A stretch of 43,175 bases of DNA from Patescibacteria group bacterium. Its GTDB lineage: Bacteria > Patescibacteriota > Patescibacteriia > DYGC01. The DNA lies in contig DAIPKK010000002.1 in assembly GCA_036769805.1 (NCBI GenBank), forward strand, positions 1 to 43,175, given 5' to 3'. Positions 9,934-32,956 of the stretch are shown here, piece after piece (positions within the stretch are counted from its first letter, which is position 1; each line of letters begins with the position of its first letter). The translations under genes were made by a program, and so were the position numbers. The notes under the pieces are model-generated. The model saw only the letters and a list, made by a program, of their open reading frames with translations. It did no database searches and was not told where the DNA came from.

Positions 9934-9964
9934 ATATATGTTTAAGTATTTAAAGAATATTCAA

Positions 9965-10336
9965 TAATATAAGCCGAATTCTGTCCCGCCCGAAAGCGGT
10001 GGCAATCATCTATCTAGTCGTAAAATCACTTTTACGATCAAGCGAGCTACCTGTCTCTAGCACCGAAGTGCTAGGCTTGCTCTTGCTCCAACCGGGGTTT
10101 GCCGTTCATTCATGTTGCCATGAAGAAAGAAAAGTAGCCTTGCGACCTCTTTTCACTTTTCACCTTTCACCGCCGAAACGGTTAGTATTGTCTCTGTGGC
10201 ACTTTCCGTCGCCGAGTGTTATGTATTATACTCGGATCGCCAGGACGTTATCCTGCGGTTTTGTCAGCTTCCCAAAGGAAACCGGGAGTTCGGACTTTCC
10301 TCAAATCGCCGGGGCGATTTGCGATTACCCATATTA
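9965..10336 (-). ncRNA. rnpB: RNase P RNA (bacterial type A ribozyme)
   Basis: The minus strand reads ...AAATCGCC-CCGG-GGCGATTT (P3) GAGGAAAGTCCGAACTC ... GGGCGGGACAGAATTCGGCTTAT. These are the universally conserved P4 strands GAGGAAAGUCC and ACAGAAnnCGGCUUA. The 5' AATATGGG pairs with the 3' CTTATATT. Length is about 372 nt, and G+C is raised relative to the flanks. Confidence 0.9.
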
Positions 10337-10389
10337 AATATCCTTAGCTCAATTTTAATGACAAAGTCAGAAAAAAGCAACCCTAAAAC

Positions 10390-22450: not shown

Positions 22451-22543
22451 TGGCGGTGGGGGCGGGATTTGAACCCGCGATCAGCGTTTTAAACCGATAC
22501 CGCTTTTCGAGAGCAGCGCCTTCAACCTCTCAGCCACCCCACC
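22451..22543 (-). tRNA. tRNA-Ser (anticodon CGA), CCA encoded
   Basis: Acceptor GGTGGGG/CCCCACC, anticodon stem CTGCT/AGCGG with loop CTCGAAA, a long variable arm, T-arm GCGGG-TTCAAAT-CCCGC, discriminator G and a 3' CCA. Confidence 0.88.
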
Positions 22544-22664: not shown

Positions 22665-23897
22665 GTGCAATATTTTTTCCTTCTGGGCAATAACTACAAT
22701 TTAGCGGCAGTGGAAGTTTATACAGTCCTGCAAAGTTTTAAAATTCGATACACCACGGCTCTGGAAGAAGCTCCTATTTTAATTATTGATAGCCCCAGTG
22801 AAATTAATTTACCGGAAATTCAAAACATTCTTGGCGGAAGCATCAAATGCGGGCTCATTTTAAATTCTTTTGAACAAAAAAATCAGCAAAAATTAGCTGA
22901 TTTTATTCATAAAACCTTATCCACATACCACCCGCAACTACATTTTGGCATCAATGTTTTTGATAAAAACGAAAATAACCAAAACGACCAATTAAGATTT
23001 TGGAAAAAATGGGCCCTAACCTGGAAAAAAGAAAACAAAAACAATTATCAACATTTACGCTTTGTTGAATCCAATGAAGGCAACCTTAGCTCGGTAATCA
23101 TCAAAAAAAATAAGTTACTCGGTGAACATGGCTGTGATTTAAATTTGATTTATAACCAAGAAACAATTTTTATCGGACAAAGCCAAAGTGTTCAAGATTT
23201 TGAGCTTTACTCCCAACTTGATTATGGTCGGCCGGCCTATGAAGCCAAGGTCGGCATGCTTCCTCCAAAACTTGCCCAAACTATGATTAACCTATCGCGC
23301 CAAAGTGATGAAGATATCCACAGTTTACACATACTGGATCCTTTCTGCGGTTCTGGCACGGTTCTTAATCAAGCGGTTTTCAGTGGATTTATCCACATTT
23401 ACGGAACTGATATTGATCCCCAAGCAATTCAACGCAGTAAAGAAAATTTATCTTATGTTAGCGATTTATTAAAGACTGTGGATATTAATTTAAATTTACA
23501 AATAATTGATGTGAACAAGTTATCCACAATGTTAACAAAAGCCAATATTGATAAGGTGATTAGTGAAGCTCATCTCGGTCCGGCACTTAGTGGAAAAGAG
23601 TCCAAAGAGCAATTAAACGAAAACAAGCGGCTCCTGGAAGTTATATACAAGGGGGCTTTTCAAGAAATTTACAAAGTCATGAAGCCGGGAGGAATCTTGG
23701 TTCTAACCATTCCGATTTTTTTATACAAACAACAACTGATCAAATTTGATATTCAAAATTTGATTTATAATAATTTCAAAAAGGCCAAAGTTCTTGGAAA
23801 ACACAAAAACCTTTACACAGAACGCAATTCTTTAATCTATAAACGCCCTAATCAAAAATTATGGCGCGAAATATTCGTCTTTCAAAAACAAAAATAA
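22665..23897 (+). CDS. SAM-dependent methyltransferase, Trm11/TrmG10-like (putative RNA guanine-N2 methyltransferase)
   Basis: 410 aa with an apparent GTG start. LPPKLAQTMINLS....LHILDPFCGSGTVLNQA is the substrate-loop plus motif I pattern of the UPF0020/Trm11 family. Confidence 0.6.
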   Translation: MQYFFLLGNNYNLAAVEVYTVLQSFKIRYTTALEEAPILIIDSPSEINLPEIQNILGGSIKCGLILNSFEQKNQQKLADFIHKTLSTYHPQLHFGINVFDKNENNQNDQLRFWKKWALTWKKENKNNYQHLRFVESNEGNLSSVIIKKNKLLGEHGCDLNLIYNQETIFIGQSQSVQDFELYSQLDYGRPAYEAKVGMLPPKLAQTMINLSRQSDEDIHSLHILDPFCGSGTVLNQAVFSGFIHIYGTDIDPQAIQRSKENLSYVSDLLKTVDINLNLQIIDVNKLSTMLTKANIDKVISEAHLGPALSGKESKEQLNENKRLLEVIYKGAFQEIYKVMKPGGILVLTIPIFLYKQQLIKFDIQNLIYNNFKKAKVLGKHKNLYTERNSLIYKRPNQKLWREIFVFQKQK

Positions 23898-25040: not shown

Positions 25041-25115
25041 TGGCGTCCCCGACAGGAATTGAACCTGTATTTATTTCTTAGGAGGAAACCGTTCTATCCG
25101 TTGAACTACGGGGAC
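25041..25115 (-). tRNA. tRNA-Arg (anticodon CCT), CCA encoded
   Basis: Acceptor GTCCCCG/CGGGGAC, D-arm GTTC-AACGGATA-GAAC, anticodon stem GTTTC/GAAAT with loop CTCCTAA, T-arm ACAGG-TTCAATT-CCTGT, then G-CCA. Confidence 0.85.
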
Positions 25116-25557
25116 CTTGTTCCTTATATTCAAGATACAACCACGACATTGCGCCCCCAACAATCAAAATATCAGCAAAATTAAACACCGGAAAACGCCA
25201 AATCGTAATATAATCAATAACATAAGAATAGAGAATACGATCAATAAAATTCAACAAAGCCCCGCAAAGCAACAAAGCCACTACTATTTTTTTGCTAAAA
25301 TTAACGTTTTTTCGCCACCGAATAAACAATAAGTAAAACAGAAAACCAATCAATAAAACATTAATAAGCATCAATAACCAAAAACCAATGGGAATACTAA
25401 AAGCAATAAACTTATTATAATGCAAGTCCAAGCCAAGCCAATCACCAAACAAATAAAAAGCTTGGCCATCCAAAGTATGAAGCAAAAAATATTTCACGAG
25501 AAAATCAATAGCGAATATTCCGCTAAAAATACACAAAAAAACAAAGAAAAAAGTCAT
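25078..25557 (-). CDS. lspA: Lipoprotein signal peptidase (signal peptidase II)
   Basis: 159 aa, 4 TM, with the catalytic-Asp motif FNFADILIVGGA. The last 13 codons (25078-25115) lie inside the tRNA-Arg gene on the same strand. Confidence 0.75.
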   Translation of the reverse strand: MTFFFVFLCIFSGIFAIDFLVKYFLLHTLDGQAFYLFGDWLGLDLHYNKFIAFSIPIGFWLLMLINVLLIGFLFYLLFIRWRKNVNFSKKIVVALLLCGALLNFIDRILYSYVIDYITIWRFPVFNFADILIVGGAMSWLYLEYKEQGPRSSTDRTVSS

Positions 25558-25931
25558 TAGTGCCCCTTTAATTTAAGTTTGCAAGCCATACAGGAACTTG
25601 ATGTCGGTCTGGCGCGTAAACGATTTTCATCGATTTGCTTGCCGCAATACTTACAAACACCATAAGAACCGGCATCAATCCGTCTCAAAGCATGAATCAC
25701 GTCTCGTAAAGATTTCTCCAAGCTGTCCTCAATCGCTAAATTGTCCTGATAAACCTCAACTTCATTGCTGTTGTCTTCCAAACTGTCGCCAAAACTCGGA
25801 AAAACCGTTTCAAAGTCTTCCGGATTTTTGCTGTTTGGTTTTGCAAAAGATAATAGATCTTTTTCTAGTTTTTCCTTCTCTTTATTAAGGATTTCGCGCA
25901 TCTCTTGCAAGAGTTTTTTAGATAACACCAT
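25557..25931 (-). CDS. DksA/TraR family C4-type zinc-finger protein
   Basis: The start was chosen at MVLSKKLLQEM (124 aa). It has a coiled-coil N-terminus and a C-terminal CKYCGKQI...R......C..C finger. Its TAA overlaps the lspA ATG by 1 nt (TAATG). Confidence 0.8.
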   Translation of the reverse strand: MVLSKKLLQEMREILNKEKEKLEKDLLSFAKPNSKNPEDFETVFPSFGDSLEDNSNEVEVYQDNLAIEDSLEKSLRDVIHALRRIDAGSYGVCKYCGKQIDENRLRARPTSSSCMACKLKLKGH

Positions 25932-25976
25932 AATTATCAAAGTAAAAAATAAAATAGATAAACACAAGTTTTTAAT

Positions 25977-26004
25977 AGTATAGCAAATCGTCGTAAAAAT
26001 GCAA
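25977..26004 (-). promoter_or_regulatory. Candidate sigma-70 promoter for the dksA-like/lspA/tRNA-Arg/ychF unit
   Basis: The minus strand reads TTGCAT-16 nt-TATACT, with TGC immediately upstream of the -10 (extended -10). It lies about 45 nt upstream of the start at 25931. Confidence 0.5.
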
Positions 26005-26059
26005 ATCGTATTTTTAAAGCCTAAAATCAAGGTAAATGTAGTGTGTTCGCGTAAAAAAG

Positions 26060-26596
26060 TAAAAGGCGCAGTACTCAAGATCTCGCCGTAAAAAGTAAAG
26101 ATTTAAGTGCTACGCCCATGATTGTATCTACGGGCGTTCGCTGTGGGAACGGTCCCATAGAATTGATAATGTGTCTGAGGCCACCTTTCACCAAGGCCAC
26201 CGCCTCTCCCTTCGGGTACTCCCCGAGGATACCGACATCAGCTGAAACGCCGAGGTCGTTTTTGTTTTGATTTTAATTTTTTTGTTTTTTGTTTTTATGT
26301 TCGCGGGTGAAACTGCGAACGATTTTTTGTGGATCTCTCCGCGGTAAGGGAGAAGTAACATGTGAATGCCTCACATGTCATGATACATGTCCGAAGACAT
26401 GCAATGATTGCTTTCACCGAAGTTTGTTTGAGCAAAGCTTAAAGTGGTGAAAGACTTAAATGAGTGTTTAAGAAAGAACTAAGTGAAAGAACTTTGATAA
26501 GTCCCGAAGAACGAATCAAGAAGTTTTTTTTGTTTTGTTTTTTTGATGATAACCGCAGGTAGAGGAGTGAGGTCGCTTTACCTTCAACTATCACCT
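26060..26596 (-). ncRNA. Unclassified, highly structured noncoding RNA candidate (about 540 nt, three hairpin-rich domains joined by A/C-rich linkers). The strand call is tentative.
   Basis: No ORF of 60 aa or more on either strand. Many perfect 5-8 bp hairpins are present, including two well-stemmed UUCG-capped ones (plus a weaker third) when read on the minus strand. A dedicated promoter lies at 26603-26631 and a weak hairpin plus T-run at 26065-26087. See the findings for details. Confidence 0.45.
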
Positions 26597-26602
26597 ATGG
26601 AC

Positions 26603-26631
26603 AGTATATCACAAAATCAAAAGTGATGCAA
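26603..26631 (-). promoter_or_regulatory. Near-consensus sigma-70 promoter driving the noncoding locus
   Basis: The minus strand reads TTGCAT-17 nt-TATACT with TGA directly upstream (extended -10). The hexamers are the same as in the promoter at 25977-26004. Confidence 0.55.
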
Positions 26632-26699
26632 ATTTTTTAAAGCTTTAAGTTTTTTATCTAAAATTAGAGAAAAATTTGAATAAAATTTTTGTCCACACC

Positions 26700-27956
26700 T
26701 TAGTCACAGGCGCTAAAAATATAATTGGAAATTTTTTCTTCAATCTTTAAATTTTGACAAGTATCCGGTAAAAACTTCCAAGGAAAAATTTCTGACAACA
26801 AGTTTTTTTGAACAAGAACTTTTGGAGTGGAAAAGTTTTTTACCTGAAGGTCGGTCGGCGATAAAAATAAATTTTCTGTTTGATACAAATTTTTGTCAGA
26901 TGACAAAATTAAATTTTTTTGAAAAGGGTAGGCGTATAAAAAATTCTCCGACTTTTGGTCGAGGGGGATCTTTTTTAAAATGTAAGAATTAAAATTTTCT
27001 TCCTGCCATGAAAAAGTTTCAAAATTCAAAATCTCATCATGGTAATGGCTGCCATCCAAAAGCTCATTATCCCGAATTTCTCGGTTTTGATAAGCCACTT
27101 GATACTGAATATCCGACAATAACTCATTATTATCAACATTTTCCAAGAAAATTGCCCAATTATTAACAAAAAACTGACTTTCTTGATCAAAAATAGCCAA
27201 AGAAAGCTCTTTATCAGACAATGGAGACAGCAACAACCTTAGGTTTTCCGGTAAAAATTGGCTGATTTCAGACAATTTTAACTGATTATTAACGTAAAGC
27301 AATTTATTTTGTAAAGCATCAATGTTGAAAACATTAGCTTTTTCCAATGGTCGCAAGGTATTGTCATTTAAAGAAACACGTATGGTTTTTTCATCAAACT
27401 CGCACGAAAATGATTGTTTTTGCCAACGCCCCACGCAAATATTGTTAAAAATCAACAAATCCGGCAAGGCTTGTTCCCGAATCTGCAAATCATCACCATT
27501 AATAAGCAAAACCTGTTGATCATAAGAGTAGGGGATTTGCGCAGACTCAAGTTTGGCTAAAAATTCAGCGGGTAGGGGAGAGTAGGAAAAAATTAGCAAT
27601 TTTGCTTTTATATCAGCGGAATTTTCCCAGTATATCGCCCAATAAGCTTGGTCGGTGGCTAAGATATCCTCCCACAAACCACGCTCCAACCCCAACAACT
27701 CGTGCGTCGCCCGCCCCCCAAACTCCTGCCAATTGGAATTATTCTGATAGCCCTTCTTGTTAAAAATCGCGAAAAACTCCACTTGTGCTACCGGAATACT
27801 TCGATAAATACTCCAATAAGCAAACATACTACGTCCGGCCAAAACAAATACCCAGACTAAAAAAGAAATCCAAATGGCATTAAAGATCAATTTAAACCAA
27901 TTGAATTTCTTTTTTGGCTGTAACTCCGGACTTAAAGTTAATGTTTCACTCATCAT
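26700..27956 (-). CDS. Membrane-anchored hypothetical protein
   Basis: 418-aa ORF with one N-terminal TM helix (LIFNAIWISFLVWVFVLAG) and no recognisable domain. It lies 6 nt downstream of pnp. Confidence 0.55.
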   Translation of the reverse strand: MMSETLTLSPELQPKKKFNWFKLIFNAIWISFLVWVFVLAGRSMFAYWSIYRSIPVAQVEFFAIFNKKGYQNNSNWQEFGGRATHELLGLERGLWEDILATDQAYWAIYWENSADIKAKLLIFSYSPLPAEFLAKLESAQIPYSYDQQVLLINGDDLQIREQALPDLLIFNNICVGRWQKQSFSCEFDEKTIRVSLNDNTLRPLEKANVFNIDALQNKLLYVNNQLKLSEISQFLPENLRLLLSPLSDKELSLAIFDQESQFFVNNWAIFLENVDNNELLSDIQYQVAYQNREIRDNELLDGSHYHDEILNFETFSWQEENFNSYILKKIPLDQKSENFLYAYPFQKNLILSSDKNLYQTENLFLSPTDLQVKNFSTPKVLVQKNLLSEIFPWKFLPDTCQNLKIEEKISNYIFSACD

Positions 27957-31162: not shown

Positions 31163-31319
31163 TTTTTAATCTCAAATAATACACAAATTATCCACAGATT
31201 AAATTTATCTAATATAAAATAAATTTATATTAAACTATAAAGTTATCCACAAATCAATCTTTTATTTTTTTATATATTTGTTAAGATAAAATGGACTTAA
31301 AAATTATAAAATAAAACAA
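31163..31319 (+). promoter_or_regulatory. oriC part 1 / dnaA promoter region: two perfect DnaA boxes plus AT-rich DNA
   Basis: TTATCCACA occurs at 31188-31196 and 31243-31251 in the same orientation, 55 nt apart. The surrounding sequence is almost pure A/T. Confidence 0.7.
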
Positions 31320-32705
31320 ATGGATAACTCCGTTGACCAAAGCCAACTGCAACAACTTTGGCGATCAATTTTAGGAGAAATCGAACTGATGACCACCAAA
31401 GCTGAATTTAATACATGGTTTCAAGGTTCGCATATTTTAGATTTAAATGAAAAACAAATTACCATCGGGACCCCGAATGGTTTTGCGCAAATTTGGTTGC
31501 AACAAAAATTTACTGATACCATAAAAAAATTGTTGGAAAAACATTGGCAAAAACCGGTTGAAAAAATTGTTTTTACTTATTCCAAAAACAAGAATACTCC
31601 TGTCAATTATAATAATTCCAATACAATTACTTTAAAAAAGACGGAAATTTCCAATAATCCGCCGCAACAACAATCAACAATTGCCGAATTCGGTTTAAAT
31701 CCACGTTATACTTTTGAAACTTTTGTGGTCGGTCCGGGTAATGAATTGGCTTTTGCCGCCGCCAAAGCGGTCGCGGACTCGCCGGGCTTGATATACAATC
31801 CCTTATTTATTTATGGGGGAGTGGGTTTGGGAAAAACTCACTTAATGCAAGCGGTTGGTAATCAAATAAAAGCAATGTTACCGCAAAAGAAAATTCTTTA
31901 TATCAGCACCGAAAAATTCATTAATGATTTTATTTATTCCATCAAACAAAATTCCGTCAATGAATTTAAAAGAAAATATCGCACGGTTGATGTTTTATTG
32001 GTTGATGATATTCAATTTATTTCCGGAAAAGAAAGCACCCAAGAAGAATTTTTTCATACCTTTAATGAACTTTATCAAAATAATAAACAAATAGTTTTAA
32101 CTTCCGATCGTCCACCAAAAGAATTGGAATCTTTGGAAAATCGTTTATTATCAAGATTTGAATGGGGGATGATTGCCGATATTCGTACTCCGGATTTGGA
32201 AACAAGAATCGCCATTTTACAAAATAAATCACAGGAAAAAGGCTTGCTGTTAGATTCAGACTCAATTATTTATATCGCTAAAATGGTCCAAAATAATATT
32301 CGTGAATTGGAAGGATTTTTAAATAAGTTATTGGCTTACCAACAAATAAATAATACCCCTTTGACTTTGGAAAATATTAAAGTCATTATGGGAAATAATA
32401 TTAAAGTAAATCAAGCAAAAAAGAATCTTACACCTCAAAATTTATTAAATAATGTTTGTAAATATTTCAATGTAACTCAAGATGAAATATTAAGTAAAAC
32501 CAGAACCAAACATTTGGTTTATCCGAGACAAATCTTATGTTATTTATTAAAAAATGAAGCTAATTATTCTTATCCGGCAATTGGTAAATTTCTTAACGGC
32601 CGCGATCATACCACAATTTTACATGCCGTCGCTAAATTGGAAAAAGAAATTCACCATAATGAACAATTAAGACAAGATATTGAAAATATTAAAAAAGCAT
32701 CTTAA
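31320..32705 (+). CDS. dnaA: Chromosomal replication initiator protein DnaA
   Basis: 461 aa with the AAA+ Walker A GGVGLGKTHL, the DDIQF box, and the domain IV DNA-binding helix DHTTILHA. Confidence 0.97.
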   Translation: MDNSVDQSQLQQLWRSILGEIELMTTKAEFNTWFQGSHILDLNEKQITIGTPNGFAQIWLQQKFTDTIKKLLEKHWQKPVEKIVFTYSKNKNTPVNYNNSNTITLKKTEISNNPPQQQSTIAEFGLNPRYTFETFVVGPGNELAFAAAKAVADSPGLIYNPLFIYGGVGLGKTHLMQAVGNQIKAMLPQKKILYISTEKFINDFIYSIKQNSVNEFKRKYRTVDVLLVDDIQFISGKESTQEEFFHTFNELYQNNKQIVLTSDRPPKELESLENRLLSRFEWGMIADIRTPDLETRIAILQNKSQEKGLLLDSDSIIYIAKMVQNNIRELEGFLNKLLAYQQINNTPLTLENIKVIMGNNIKVNQAKKNLTPQNLLNNVCKYFNVTQDEILSKTRTKHLVYPRQILCYLLKNEANYSYPAIGKFLNGRDHTTILHAVAKLEKEIHHNEQLRQDIENIKKAS

Positions 32706-32956
32706 TTATAATGGTATAAATTGTGGATAACTTAAACTTTACTTGTATATAAGATTGGTATAAATAATTAATATAATAATAATCCCAAAATAATCCACCG
32801 GTTAACACTGAATAATACACAGACATATCAACAGACTGTGCATAATAATGATCTTATAAATCCAGGGTTTTCTAACCTTTTCCACATATTCACAACACTT
32901 ACTACTATTACTACTAATTTAATATATTTATATATTAATAATAATAAAGATAATTT
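32706..32956 (+). promoter_or_regulatory. oriC part 2 (dnaA-dnaN intergenic): DnaA boxes, a trinucleotide-repeat tract and an AT-rich unwinding element
   Basis: There is a perfect box TGTGGATAA at 32722-32730. Degenerate boxes lie at 32791-32799, 32813-32821 and 32878-32886 (TTTTCCACA). A CTA/TTA trinucleotide tract spans 32899-32917, followed by about 40 nt of pure A/T up to the dnaN start. Confidence 0.7.

Follow-up and report, generated by a model that had tools for sequence, protein, structure and literature searches.

The large, widely conserved structured RNAs of bacteria are few (for example the ribosomal RNAs, RNase P RNA, transfer-messenger RNA (tmRNA), signal recognition particle (SRP) RNA, 6S RNA, OLE, raiA and ROOL/GOLLD), and each of them revealed basic biology. 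The Patescibacteria, also known as the candidate phyla radiation (CPR), account for much of bacterial diversity and have minimal genomes; to our knowledge, almost none of their non-coding RNAs has been characterised experimentally. The stretch analysed here is the 43,175 nt of contig DAIPKK010000002.1 (assembly GCA_036769805.1, positions 1 to 43,175) from a Patescibacteria group bacterium close to Candidatus Paceibacter; it is referred to below as the window. On its minus strand, in a gap between the gene for a protein of 418 amino acids (aa) and a dksA-like gene, there appears to be a gene for a structured RNA of about 540 nt. A first-pass annotation had suggested that a large, unclassified structured RNA has a promoter of its own at this place, and checks of Rfam, conservation and synteny all came out in favour of the proposal. 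The same annotation called the locus an orphan, a label that has to be dropped: the RNA has homologues, and the family is spread across the Patescibacteria.

The predicted RNA resembles OLE, ROOL, GOLLD and raiA in being hundreds of nucleotides long and multi-domain, with covarying helices and conserved single-stranded stretches, and also in having its own promoter and terminator, in being found in one large lineage and in a function that cannot be guessed from the sequence. It further resembles OLE, which is accompanied by oapA, in having a constant protein-gene neighbour. The likeness to OLE, GOLLD and ROOL that had been suggested earlier is valid as an analogy of type and fails as a statement of homology, as neither OLE, GOLLD, ROOL, HEARO or raiA nor any other family in Rfam 15 scored near its gathering threshold. 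Unlike that group, the RNA has no match in Rfam 15, its hosts are Patescibacteria rather than Firmicutes or phages, and no phage or plasmid copies were found in the collections searched. Its hallmarks in comparison are the motif GUUCUUU, DnaA boxes upstream and a junction that a long-range helix closes around an A/C-only strand. We rate it as a putative new class, not homologous to OLE, raiA, ROOL or GOLLD.

The gap (26079-26699), which as the first-pass annotation stated contains no open reading frame (ORF) of 60 aa or more, is flanked by the 418-aa ORF (26700-27956, minus) and by a gene for a 125-aa DksA/TraR-type zinc-finger protein (25557-25934, minus), with pnp upstream and lspA, tRNA-Arg and ychF downstream. 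The minus-strand promoter reported previously is present (TTTGCA-18-TATACT with an upstream TG, 26632-26603) and is kept in every homologue. Transcription from this sigma-70-type extended -10 promoter would start about 7 nt past the -10 element, near 26596, and would be ended near 26053, in the U-tract of an intrinsic terminator placed just before the dksA-like gene's own promoter, which in a promoter scan was of the same type as that of the RNA. The terminator lies 50-90 nt before dksA. Because it has its own terminator and dksA has a separate promoter 3' of it, the RNA gene is predicted to be its own transcription unit of about 540 nt. The terminator, the separate dksA promoter, a long-range helix closing the central domain and the upstream DnaA box are all features beyond those first noted.

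The minus strand of the predicted RNA folded with a minimum free energy (MFE) of -163.9 kcal/mol (z = -7.0; 0/100 shuffled sequences were as good), whereas the fold of the plus strand was much weaker (z = -3.1). All 12 hairpins listed in the first-pass annotation exist, each of 4-8 bp with at most one non-Watson-Crick pair, and so do the two stems capped by C(UUCG)G (26386-401 and 26501-12) and the third UUCG on a 2-bp closure. The three blocks thought to be richer in G+C were indeed so (55%, 41% and 48%, versus 10% in the linkers and 37.5% in the whole window). The two linkers had been described as T/G-only on the plus strand, which is true of the first (26524-44) but not of the second (26259-98), where there are four A residues besides T and G. 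An argument for the minus strand based on G-U pairs that would be A-C on the other strand proved indecisive, as two stems favour the minus strand and two the plus strand; the minus strand was assigned from its promoter and terminator together with the UUCG loops and fold z-scores.

Across the eight long-form sequences described below, a structure of 97 pairs was 96.1% paired. Changes on both sides of a pair (double changes) affected 11 pairs, compared with 4.7 ± 1.5 in column shuffles (0/500) and 0-2 in slid controls. The 10-bp long-range helix formed by CUUCUCCCUU and AAGGGAGAGG was recovered for 10 of 11 homologues when each was folded independently by MFE, and hairpins of variable length and sequence still folded in every homologue. 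The long-range helix closes a junction that holds P7, the A/C-rich strand, P8 and P9. The A/C strand in this junction is unable to pair with itself and would be presented unpaired by the helix.

Close relatives were sought through homologues of the two flanking proteins and by one pattern scan of metagenomes. They comprise a long form of about 550 nt (eight distinct sequences including that of the window, and two partial ones) and a short form of about 390-430 nt (four sequences), which lacks linker 1 and has a different P1 loop; the two forms match each other at E = 3e-5. All of them occupy the identical genomic slot, and the promoter, the terminator and the second A/C-rich linker are near-invariant among them, with ACAUAAAAACAAAAA of linker 2 unchanged in 13/13 homologous loci. 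A DnaA box, TGTGGA(T/C)AA, keeps its position throughout the close and the short-form homologues and is perfect in most. The 5' arm of P1 reads GAAGGU in the window and GGAGGU in most homologues; of the eight long-form homologues, seven hold an unchanged CCUCACUCCUC in the loop and L082 has UCUCACUCCUC. The motif (c)GUUCUUUc, found after the 5' hairpin, also occurs in short-form and distant family members. The homologous intergenic regions, whose conservation the first-pass annotation had named as a check, are conserved and carry compensatory base-pair changes. The A-rich linker was also considered as a repeated genomic element and rejected as such, being found nowhere else in the window than at the RNA locus. 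One further sequence (L090:4050-5188, JGI contig Ga0209717_1013540) equals L001 through the upstream region, promoter, P1 and linker 1, and departs from it exactly inside the A-run, where coding DNA of no relation follows; either the assembly is chimeric at this low-complexity tract, or the contig carries a genuinely rearranged or deleted variant of the RNA locus.

A cmscan of the window against Rfam 15 on both strands gave no match at the RNA locus at gathering thresholds, and at E <= 10 the region yielded chance-level matches only (snoRNAs, miRNAs and CrcZ at 14 bits). Chance-level matches were likewise all that was obtained for six close homologue loci at E <= 1 and for one distant member at E <= 10, and 11 distant loci had no match at gathering thresholds. 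ARAGORN found no tmRNA in the window or in 10 homologous loci, and no tRNA-like feature at the RNA locus. The phage and plasmid collections contained no blastn match to the RNA; in viral contigs a pattern for the 3' domain had 0 matches and one for the A-linker had 60, all of them low-complexity chance matches without further similarity. A full-text literature search found no such RNA described in Patescibacteria or CPR, although a very recent description is possible. The family of which the predicted RNA is very probably the local, diverged member is thus absent from Rfam 15 and from the literature searched.

The CrcZ echo deserves comment. Like CrcZ-type sponges, the RNA has several conserved, presumably unpaired A-rich motifs between hairpins, and the only faint Rfam signal, at linker 2, is to CrcZ. 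In contrast to CrcZ, however, the score (14.3 bits) is far under the 95-bit threshold, the A/C tracts are not periodic A-R-N repeats, the spacing of their C residues being irregular, and outside these tracts the structure and conservation of the RNA go far beyond what a sponge would require. We know of no Hfq or Crc context for these organisms, and an Hfq/Crc sponge of this kind was rejected. Another idea was that the 3' arm of P1 (ACCUGCGGUU) is complementary to 16S helix 45; it was dropped because the string is present in the window sequence alone and not in the homologues.

The wider family was examined in 80 pnp loci, one genome per species, and the profile search covered 81 loci (the 80 plus L161). 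About 28 of the 32 loci with dksA on the pnp strand have a non-coding gap of 540-1200 nt between an ORF of 160-530 aa (mostly about 400-530) and dksA; they include Uhrbacteria, Magasanikbacteria, Falkowbacteria, Kuenenbacteria and metagenome-assembled genomes (MAGs) of Parcubacteria type. The gaps are mutually alignable, and the distant RNAs, of 400-550 nt, share one slot and one order of elements: DnaA boxes, TTGACA-17-TAtAAT, a 5' hairpin, (c)GUUCUUUc (family consensus TnGTTCTTT), a long hairpin termed P2 (GGGAAGUUUCCCGAA/UUCGGGGAA), AUCUCAC-GCUnUACUG, AAACAAAAACAAAA, AAUGGUAGAGnGG, 3' hairpins and a two-tier terminator, which closes the RNA in all lineages. A profile of 27 gaps matched 38 of the 81 loci at E <= 1e-3 (35 at E < 1e-10), including 12 loci outside the profile build, eight of which matched at E <= 3e-15. 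Two distant members folded with z = -7.2 and -6.2. When P2 and the long-range helix were compared in 20 sequences, 13 of 23 pairs carried double changes, in 42 cells against 13.1 ± 3.2. A comparison of the long-range helix in 26 sequences, in which the window clade was placed in register with the others, showed double changes at each of the 10 pairs, in 52 cells compared with 16.4 ± 4.0 after shuffling (0/500) and at most 19 after sliding. Duplexes of cognate strands were more stable (-14.4 kcal/mol) than non-cognate ones (-10.1 kcal/mol), and none of 20000 permutations was as good. In L161 (CUUCUCUACU/GGUAGAGAAG) and the window the first six pairs of this helix are common; of the remaining four, three differ in both bases and one in a single base. 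Several sequences in the sample (L002, L007-L009, L011, L019, L028, L029 and others) bear the title 'uncultured Gammaproteobacteria bacterium', while their gene content, synteny and closest relatives are clearly those of Patescibacteria; the titles are probably a labelling artefact of MAG submission.

The position of dksA is informative in the Magasanikbacteria-type loci, in which the gene is found on the opposite strand and at a different place with respect to pnp. The RNA unit still precedes it there and consists of DnaA-like boxes, a promoter and an RNA of about 520 nt that carries GUUCUUU twice, an A/C strand rich in CAA, UGGUAGAAC and a two-tier terminator; a separate dksA promoter follows. 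As the unit precedes dksA even where it is unlinked from pnp, the RNA is tied to dksA and not to pnp. Of the 38 RNA matches, 26 are followed by an ORF with a C4 zinc finger, as found by a simple pattern search, and 4 of the remaining 12 had a DksA-like tblastn match directly past the gap. Synteny, which the first-pass annotation had left as a question, is kept over large distances as far as adjacency to dksA is concerned. Such adjacency of an RNA and a protein gene across large distances and after rearrangement is reminiscent of ssrA-smpB, OLE-oapA and HEARO-IscB; unlike the proteins of those pairs, the DksA-like protein is only a candidate partner, and DksA-family proteins are known as binders of RNA polymerase, not of RNA. 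A hairpin-like element, ..CGG(C)nCnnACGGGUGUACCCCUCCnnnGUACACC..GCCG.., is conserved about 150-250 nt upstream of the RNA promoter in L063, L064, L071 and L076, and in the dksA sense it precedes the DnaA-like boxes of the Magasanikbacteria-type loci; it could be a small RNA, or it could terminate the neighbouring gene.

The DnaA boxes also show a consistent pattern. In 12 of 15 distant loci of 22 kb all perfect boxes (2-4) were inside the RNA gap, where GC skew does not turn, and dnaA was within 10 kb in only three loci. Within each subfamily the boxes keep to fixed offsets from the -35 element (-110/-82/-46; -123/-92; window clade, -66). This is similar to the DnaA-box clusters of B. subtilis and to datA/DARS of E. 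coli, with 2-4 consensus boxes in intergenic DNA away from the GC-skew switch, and to DnaA-regulated promoters, which have boxes at fixed distances upstream. Known non-origin clusters regulate protein genes, or titrate or recycle DnaA; the literature searched held no description of a large structured RNA gene downstream of one. We read the boxes in the gap as the pattern of a putative DnaA-regulated promoter or non-origin DnaA-box cluster, and not as oriC. An oriC at the RNA locus was rejected, as there is no GC-skew turn, dnaA is usually not near, and in the window oriC-like boxes flank dnaA itself (31320-32705), with perfect boxes on both sides of it (31188-31251 and 32722-32886). Around dnaA the G+C content falls to 29% and cumulative GC skew turns at about 31-33 kb; these flanks are probably oriC, some 5 kb from the RNA gene. 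With the promoter, terminator, fold and conservation described above, the locus is thus shown, at the level of sequence, to be a predicted independent, conserved and highly structured non-coding transcription unit with linkage to dksA and DnaA boxes.

Some further observations concern the boxes. The 2-4 perfect copies stand in the first 100 nt or so past the stop codon of the roughly 400-aa gene (for example L009:13568-13690; also in L002, L021, L024, L028, L032, L053, L059, L061 and others), often as a convergent pair, TGTGGATAA-N19-22-TTATCCACA, which at the same time makes a terminator-like hairpin with a T-run after it. Elsewhere in the window, a 410-aa methyltransferase ORF (22665-23897, plus) contains perfect boxes at 22917, 23389 and 23520 and two with one mismatch, within 600 bp. 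Over the whole window boxes with at most one mismatch number 44 against 14 expected, an approximately threefold over-representation.

The window RNA has six features in common with the distant family: the genomic slot and strand, co-oriented upstream of the dksA-like gene and with its own promoter; the order of elements; GUUCUUU after the 5' hairpin, in two copies; an A/C-rich strand inside an in-register, long-range helix of a pyrimidine and a purine strand; the two-tier terminator; and a DnaA box after the upstream stop codon, in the window with one mismatch. The place of linker 2 is taken in distant members by AAACAAAAACAAAA or a CAA-rich equivalent. The hairpin P2 of the distant RNAs is absent from the window clade, which has hairpins P3-P5 instead and would on that account be a divergent subfamily. 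Judged by these shared features, the window RNA is very probably orthologous to the distant family.

The explanation that we favour, and hold to be probable though by no means secure, is that the locus is a stand-alone gene for a structured non-coding RNA of about 540 nt that acts in trans as a scaffold, possibly under the control of DnaA and in partnership with DksA. The folded RNA would offer the exposed A/C-rich strand and GUUCUUU as surfaces for binding a protein or nucleic-acid partner. DnaA may tune its transcription through the boxes at fixed distances upstream of the promoter, which would tie the level of the RNA to the replication or growth state of the cell, and the adjacency of dksA may reflect a partnership with the DksA-like zinc-finger protein or a role in the regulation of RNA polymerase. 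In the last respect there is a parallel with 6S and Ms1, which are likewise abundant-type, stand-alone RNAs with a strong promoter (here predicted from the sequence) and a link to transcription; genetic linkage to DksA, a secondary-channel factor of RNA polymerase, hints at polymerase-related regulation. A wider proposal, namely that the family is an undescribed core class of large RNA in the Patescibacteria, whose genomes are of about 1 Mb, with a promoter controlled by DnaA boxes and a function together with the DksA-like protein, is attractive but stays somewhat short of probable in our estimation.

Several points weigh against these readings. The profile of 27 distant sequences (nhmmer) did not match the window RNA, and neither a short-form profile, a long-form profile nor the single window sequence matched any distant pnp locus; since the profiles fail to connect the two groups, orthology depends on synteny and architecture. 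The window clade has a single DnaA box, which in the window is imperfect. The ends of the RNA are placed by its predicted promoter and terminator, and the shuffle controls for covariation ignore phylogeny. The scaffold role in trans, the control by DnaA and the partnership with DksA are all deduced from context, and strict adjacency to dksA would also fit a role in cis.

Five other explanations were considered, and they are given here in roughly descending order of likelihood. That the RNA is a very long cis-regulatory leader of the dksA-lspA operon, with the terminator as a regulated platform whose read-through controls dksA, seems unlikely to us, although the RNA is directly upstream of and co-oriented with dksA even after rearrangement, with the terminator close by. 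A strong, conserved promoter separates dksA from the terminator (in the window it reads TTTGCA-17-TGCTATACT, and in the Magasanikbacteria type TTGACA-17-TATACT), a length of 400-550 nt far exceeds that of known leaders, and no riboswitch or T-box model matched. Nor was any anti-terminator pairing evident, the terminator stem being 100% paired and near-invariant. On the grounds of this promoter and of there being no competing terminator pairing seen, riboswitches, T-boxes and other leader-type regulators are improbable, though some read-through into dksA is possible. Somewhat less likely again is the cleavage of a precursor at the A/C-rich linkers to give two or three smaller stable RNAs with separate actions, for instance small RNAs that base-pair through CCUCACUCCUC or GUUCUUU. 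The three structured blocks are indeed parted by long unstructured A-rich linkers, which are typical targets of endonucleases, and the first block and its linker are missing in the short form, so that these parts are modular. The covarying long-range helix, however, makes a single domain of the sequences flanking linker 2, and linker 2 is the most conserved sequence, which argues that it is functional and not a spacer.

We give little credence to a strongly diverged form of one of the universal RNAs (tmRNA, 6S, SRP or RNase P RNA) that standard models missed. A single-copy, broadly conserved RNA of 400-550 nt in very small genomes might suggest as much, and the strings GGGGAAGUUUCCCGAAGCCCAC and CAGAACCCGAC of distant members presumably bear a faint resemblance to CR-I and CR-IV of RNase P RNA. 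These strings, however, pair locally as hairpins and not as a P4 helix, and a bona fide class A RNase P RNA is present at 9954-10340 (minus; 181 bits by cmscan), which excludes RNase P as the identity of the RNA locus, where it has no match. For tmRNA there is neither a tRNA-like domain nor a conserved tag frame, the ends being a local 5' hairpin and a terminator. 6S RNA, about 185 nt long, forms a rod that has a central bubble and is closed by a stem of its two ends, unlike the present RNAs, which are branched and two to three times longer (400-550 nt), with 5' and 3' ends unpaired with each other and no Rfam 6S match at E <= 10. SRP RNA had no Rfam match at E <= 10 either, and its domain IV hairpin, marked by a GNAR tetraloop and by conserved loops of symmetric and asymmetric kind, was not seen by eye in the alignments. 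All four candidates were rejected. Just as improbable is a locus that works as DNA, a DnaA-binding element for replication control, comparable to datA/DARS or to a secondary origin, that has an AT-rich tract for unwinding and only incidental RNA structure. It is true that DnaA boxes cluster specifically at the RNA gap in distant lineages, that long A/T tracts are present and that the window locus is near dnaA and the oriC-like boxes. Against this, the compensatory changes in many helices, the UUCG loops and the conserved promoter and terminator point to selection on RNA, the gaps of the 22-kb loci have no GC-skew turn, dnaA is not near in most lineages, and the boxes are upstream of the promoter, outside the structured part. 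Least probable of all is a gene, or genes, for small proteins, such as a Lys-rich peptide read across the A-rich linker. Sense-strand ORFs of 57-94 aa cross linker 2 in several homologues, and in L083, L096 and L099 gene callers placed ORFs of 68-80 aa. Open frames across linker 2 are trivial, though, because A/C-only sequence cannot hold stop codons, and no reading frame is conserved among the homologues: start codons, frames and ends differ, the most conserved block, CCUCGGGGAGUACCCGAAGGGAGAGG, falls in different frames, hairpin indels are not multiples of three, and there is no conserved pair of Shine-Dalgarno sequence and start codon. A coding function was rejected on this evidence, as far as sequence can exclude one. 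The gene-caller ORFs inside the RNA gene (L083:5703-5945, minus; L096:2678-2911; L099:1434-1640) are on either strand and at inconsistent positions, and are likely annotation artefacts of the stop-free A/C tract.

The elements of the predicted RNA gene that underlie the preferred reading, a stand-alone structured RNA, are collected in Table 1.

Table 1. Elements in and around the predicted RNA gene, in 5' to 3' order along the minus strand (window positions).
Element	Positions	Strand	Remarks
DnaA box TGTGGACAA (RNA strand)	26689-26697	-	one mismatch to consensus; right after the 418-aa stop codon; about 95 nt 5' of the predicted RNA start
-35 element TTTGCA	26627-26632	-	kept in all homologues
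Extended -10 element TGATATACT	26603-26611	-	kept as TGnTATACT in homologues
Predicted RNA, about 540 nt	26053-26596	-	fold z = -7.0; homologues; covariation
P1, 5' hairpin	26545-26595	-	helix 1: 16 pairs, 2 with double changes, 96.9% paired
Linker 1, A/C-only, AAAAAAACAAAACAAAAAAAA	26524-26544	-	long form only; lacking in short-form homologues
P2', UUCG-capped hairpin	26492-26523	-	length and sequence vary; folds as a hairpin in every homologue
Single-stranded motif AGUUCUUU, two copies	26473-26493	-	(c)GUUCUUUc
P3 stem CUUUCACC/GGUGAAAG around conserved CUUUAAGCUUUGCUCAAACAAACUU	26411-26453	-	helices 2 and 3
P4 hairpin CAUGUC-UUCG-GACAUG	26385-26402	-	helices 4 and 5, double changes
P5, 8-bp hairpin ACAUGUGA/UCACAUGU	26358-26378	-	helix 6
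Long-range helix, 5' strand CUUCUCCCUU	26346-26355	-	pairs with 26203-26212; covaries family-wide
P7 hairpin GUUCGC/GCGAAC	26299-26320	-	just 5' of the A/C-rich strand; helix 8: double changes in 3/6 pairs
Linker 2, A/C-rich strand AUAAAAACAAAAAACAAAAAAAUUAAAAUCAAAACAAAAA	26259-26298	-	inside the loop closed by the long-range helix
P8, variable hairpin	26233-26258	-	homologue comparison and folds
P9 hairpin UCGGG-GAGUA-CCCGA	26212-26226	-	helix 9: G-C to A-U double change in L091
Long-range helix, 3' strand AAGGGAGAGG	26203-26212	-	folds and covariation
P10 GGUGGCC...GGUGGCC with CCUU-GGUGA-AAGG hairpin	26179-26201	-	helices 10 and 11: U-A to G-C double change
P11 and P12 hairpins, 3' domain	26112-26160	-	helix 12
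Two-tier terminator hairpin GGGCGUAG...CUGCGCC	26065-26117	-	helix 13, 100% paired
U-tract UUUUACUUUUUU after the terminator stem	26053-26064	-	
Separate promoter of the dksA-like gene, TTTGCA-17-TGCTATACT	25977-26005	-	

The 418-aa upstream protein had no match in Pfam, NCBIfam or PDB and has what we take, from its translation, to be an N-terminal membrane helix. With no family match and a membrane helix it gives no clue, and as an RNA-binding partner it was rejected for the same reasons. Its counterparts of about 400-530 aa in other loci (for example L009:12378-13568 and L038:6552-8150) lack a family assignment, apart from one distant counterpart that matches DUF3352. The protein diverges very fast, with 43-79% identity where DksA has 85-96%, and the gene still adjoins the RNA in most lineages. 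The window also contains tRNA-Ser(CGA) at 22451-22543 and tRNA-Arg(CCU) at 25041-25115, both on the minus strand.

An RNA of 400-550 nt kept at one locus across classes of the Patescibacteria is likely to have an important role. Its linkage to a DnaA-box cluster and to dksA leads to testable hypotheses on the coupling of replication and transcription, and the RNA is a new target for structure determination as well as a new annotation marker for thousands of MAGs in which gene callers place spurious small ORFs. If the family does prove to be a core RNA class of the Patescibacteria, it could represent a new RNA regulator or ribonucleoprotein by which transcription is linked to the status of replication, or have an entirely new biochemical role.

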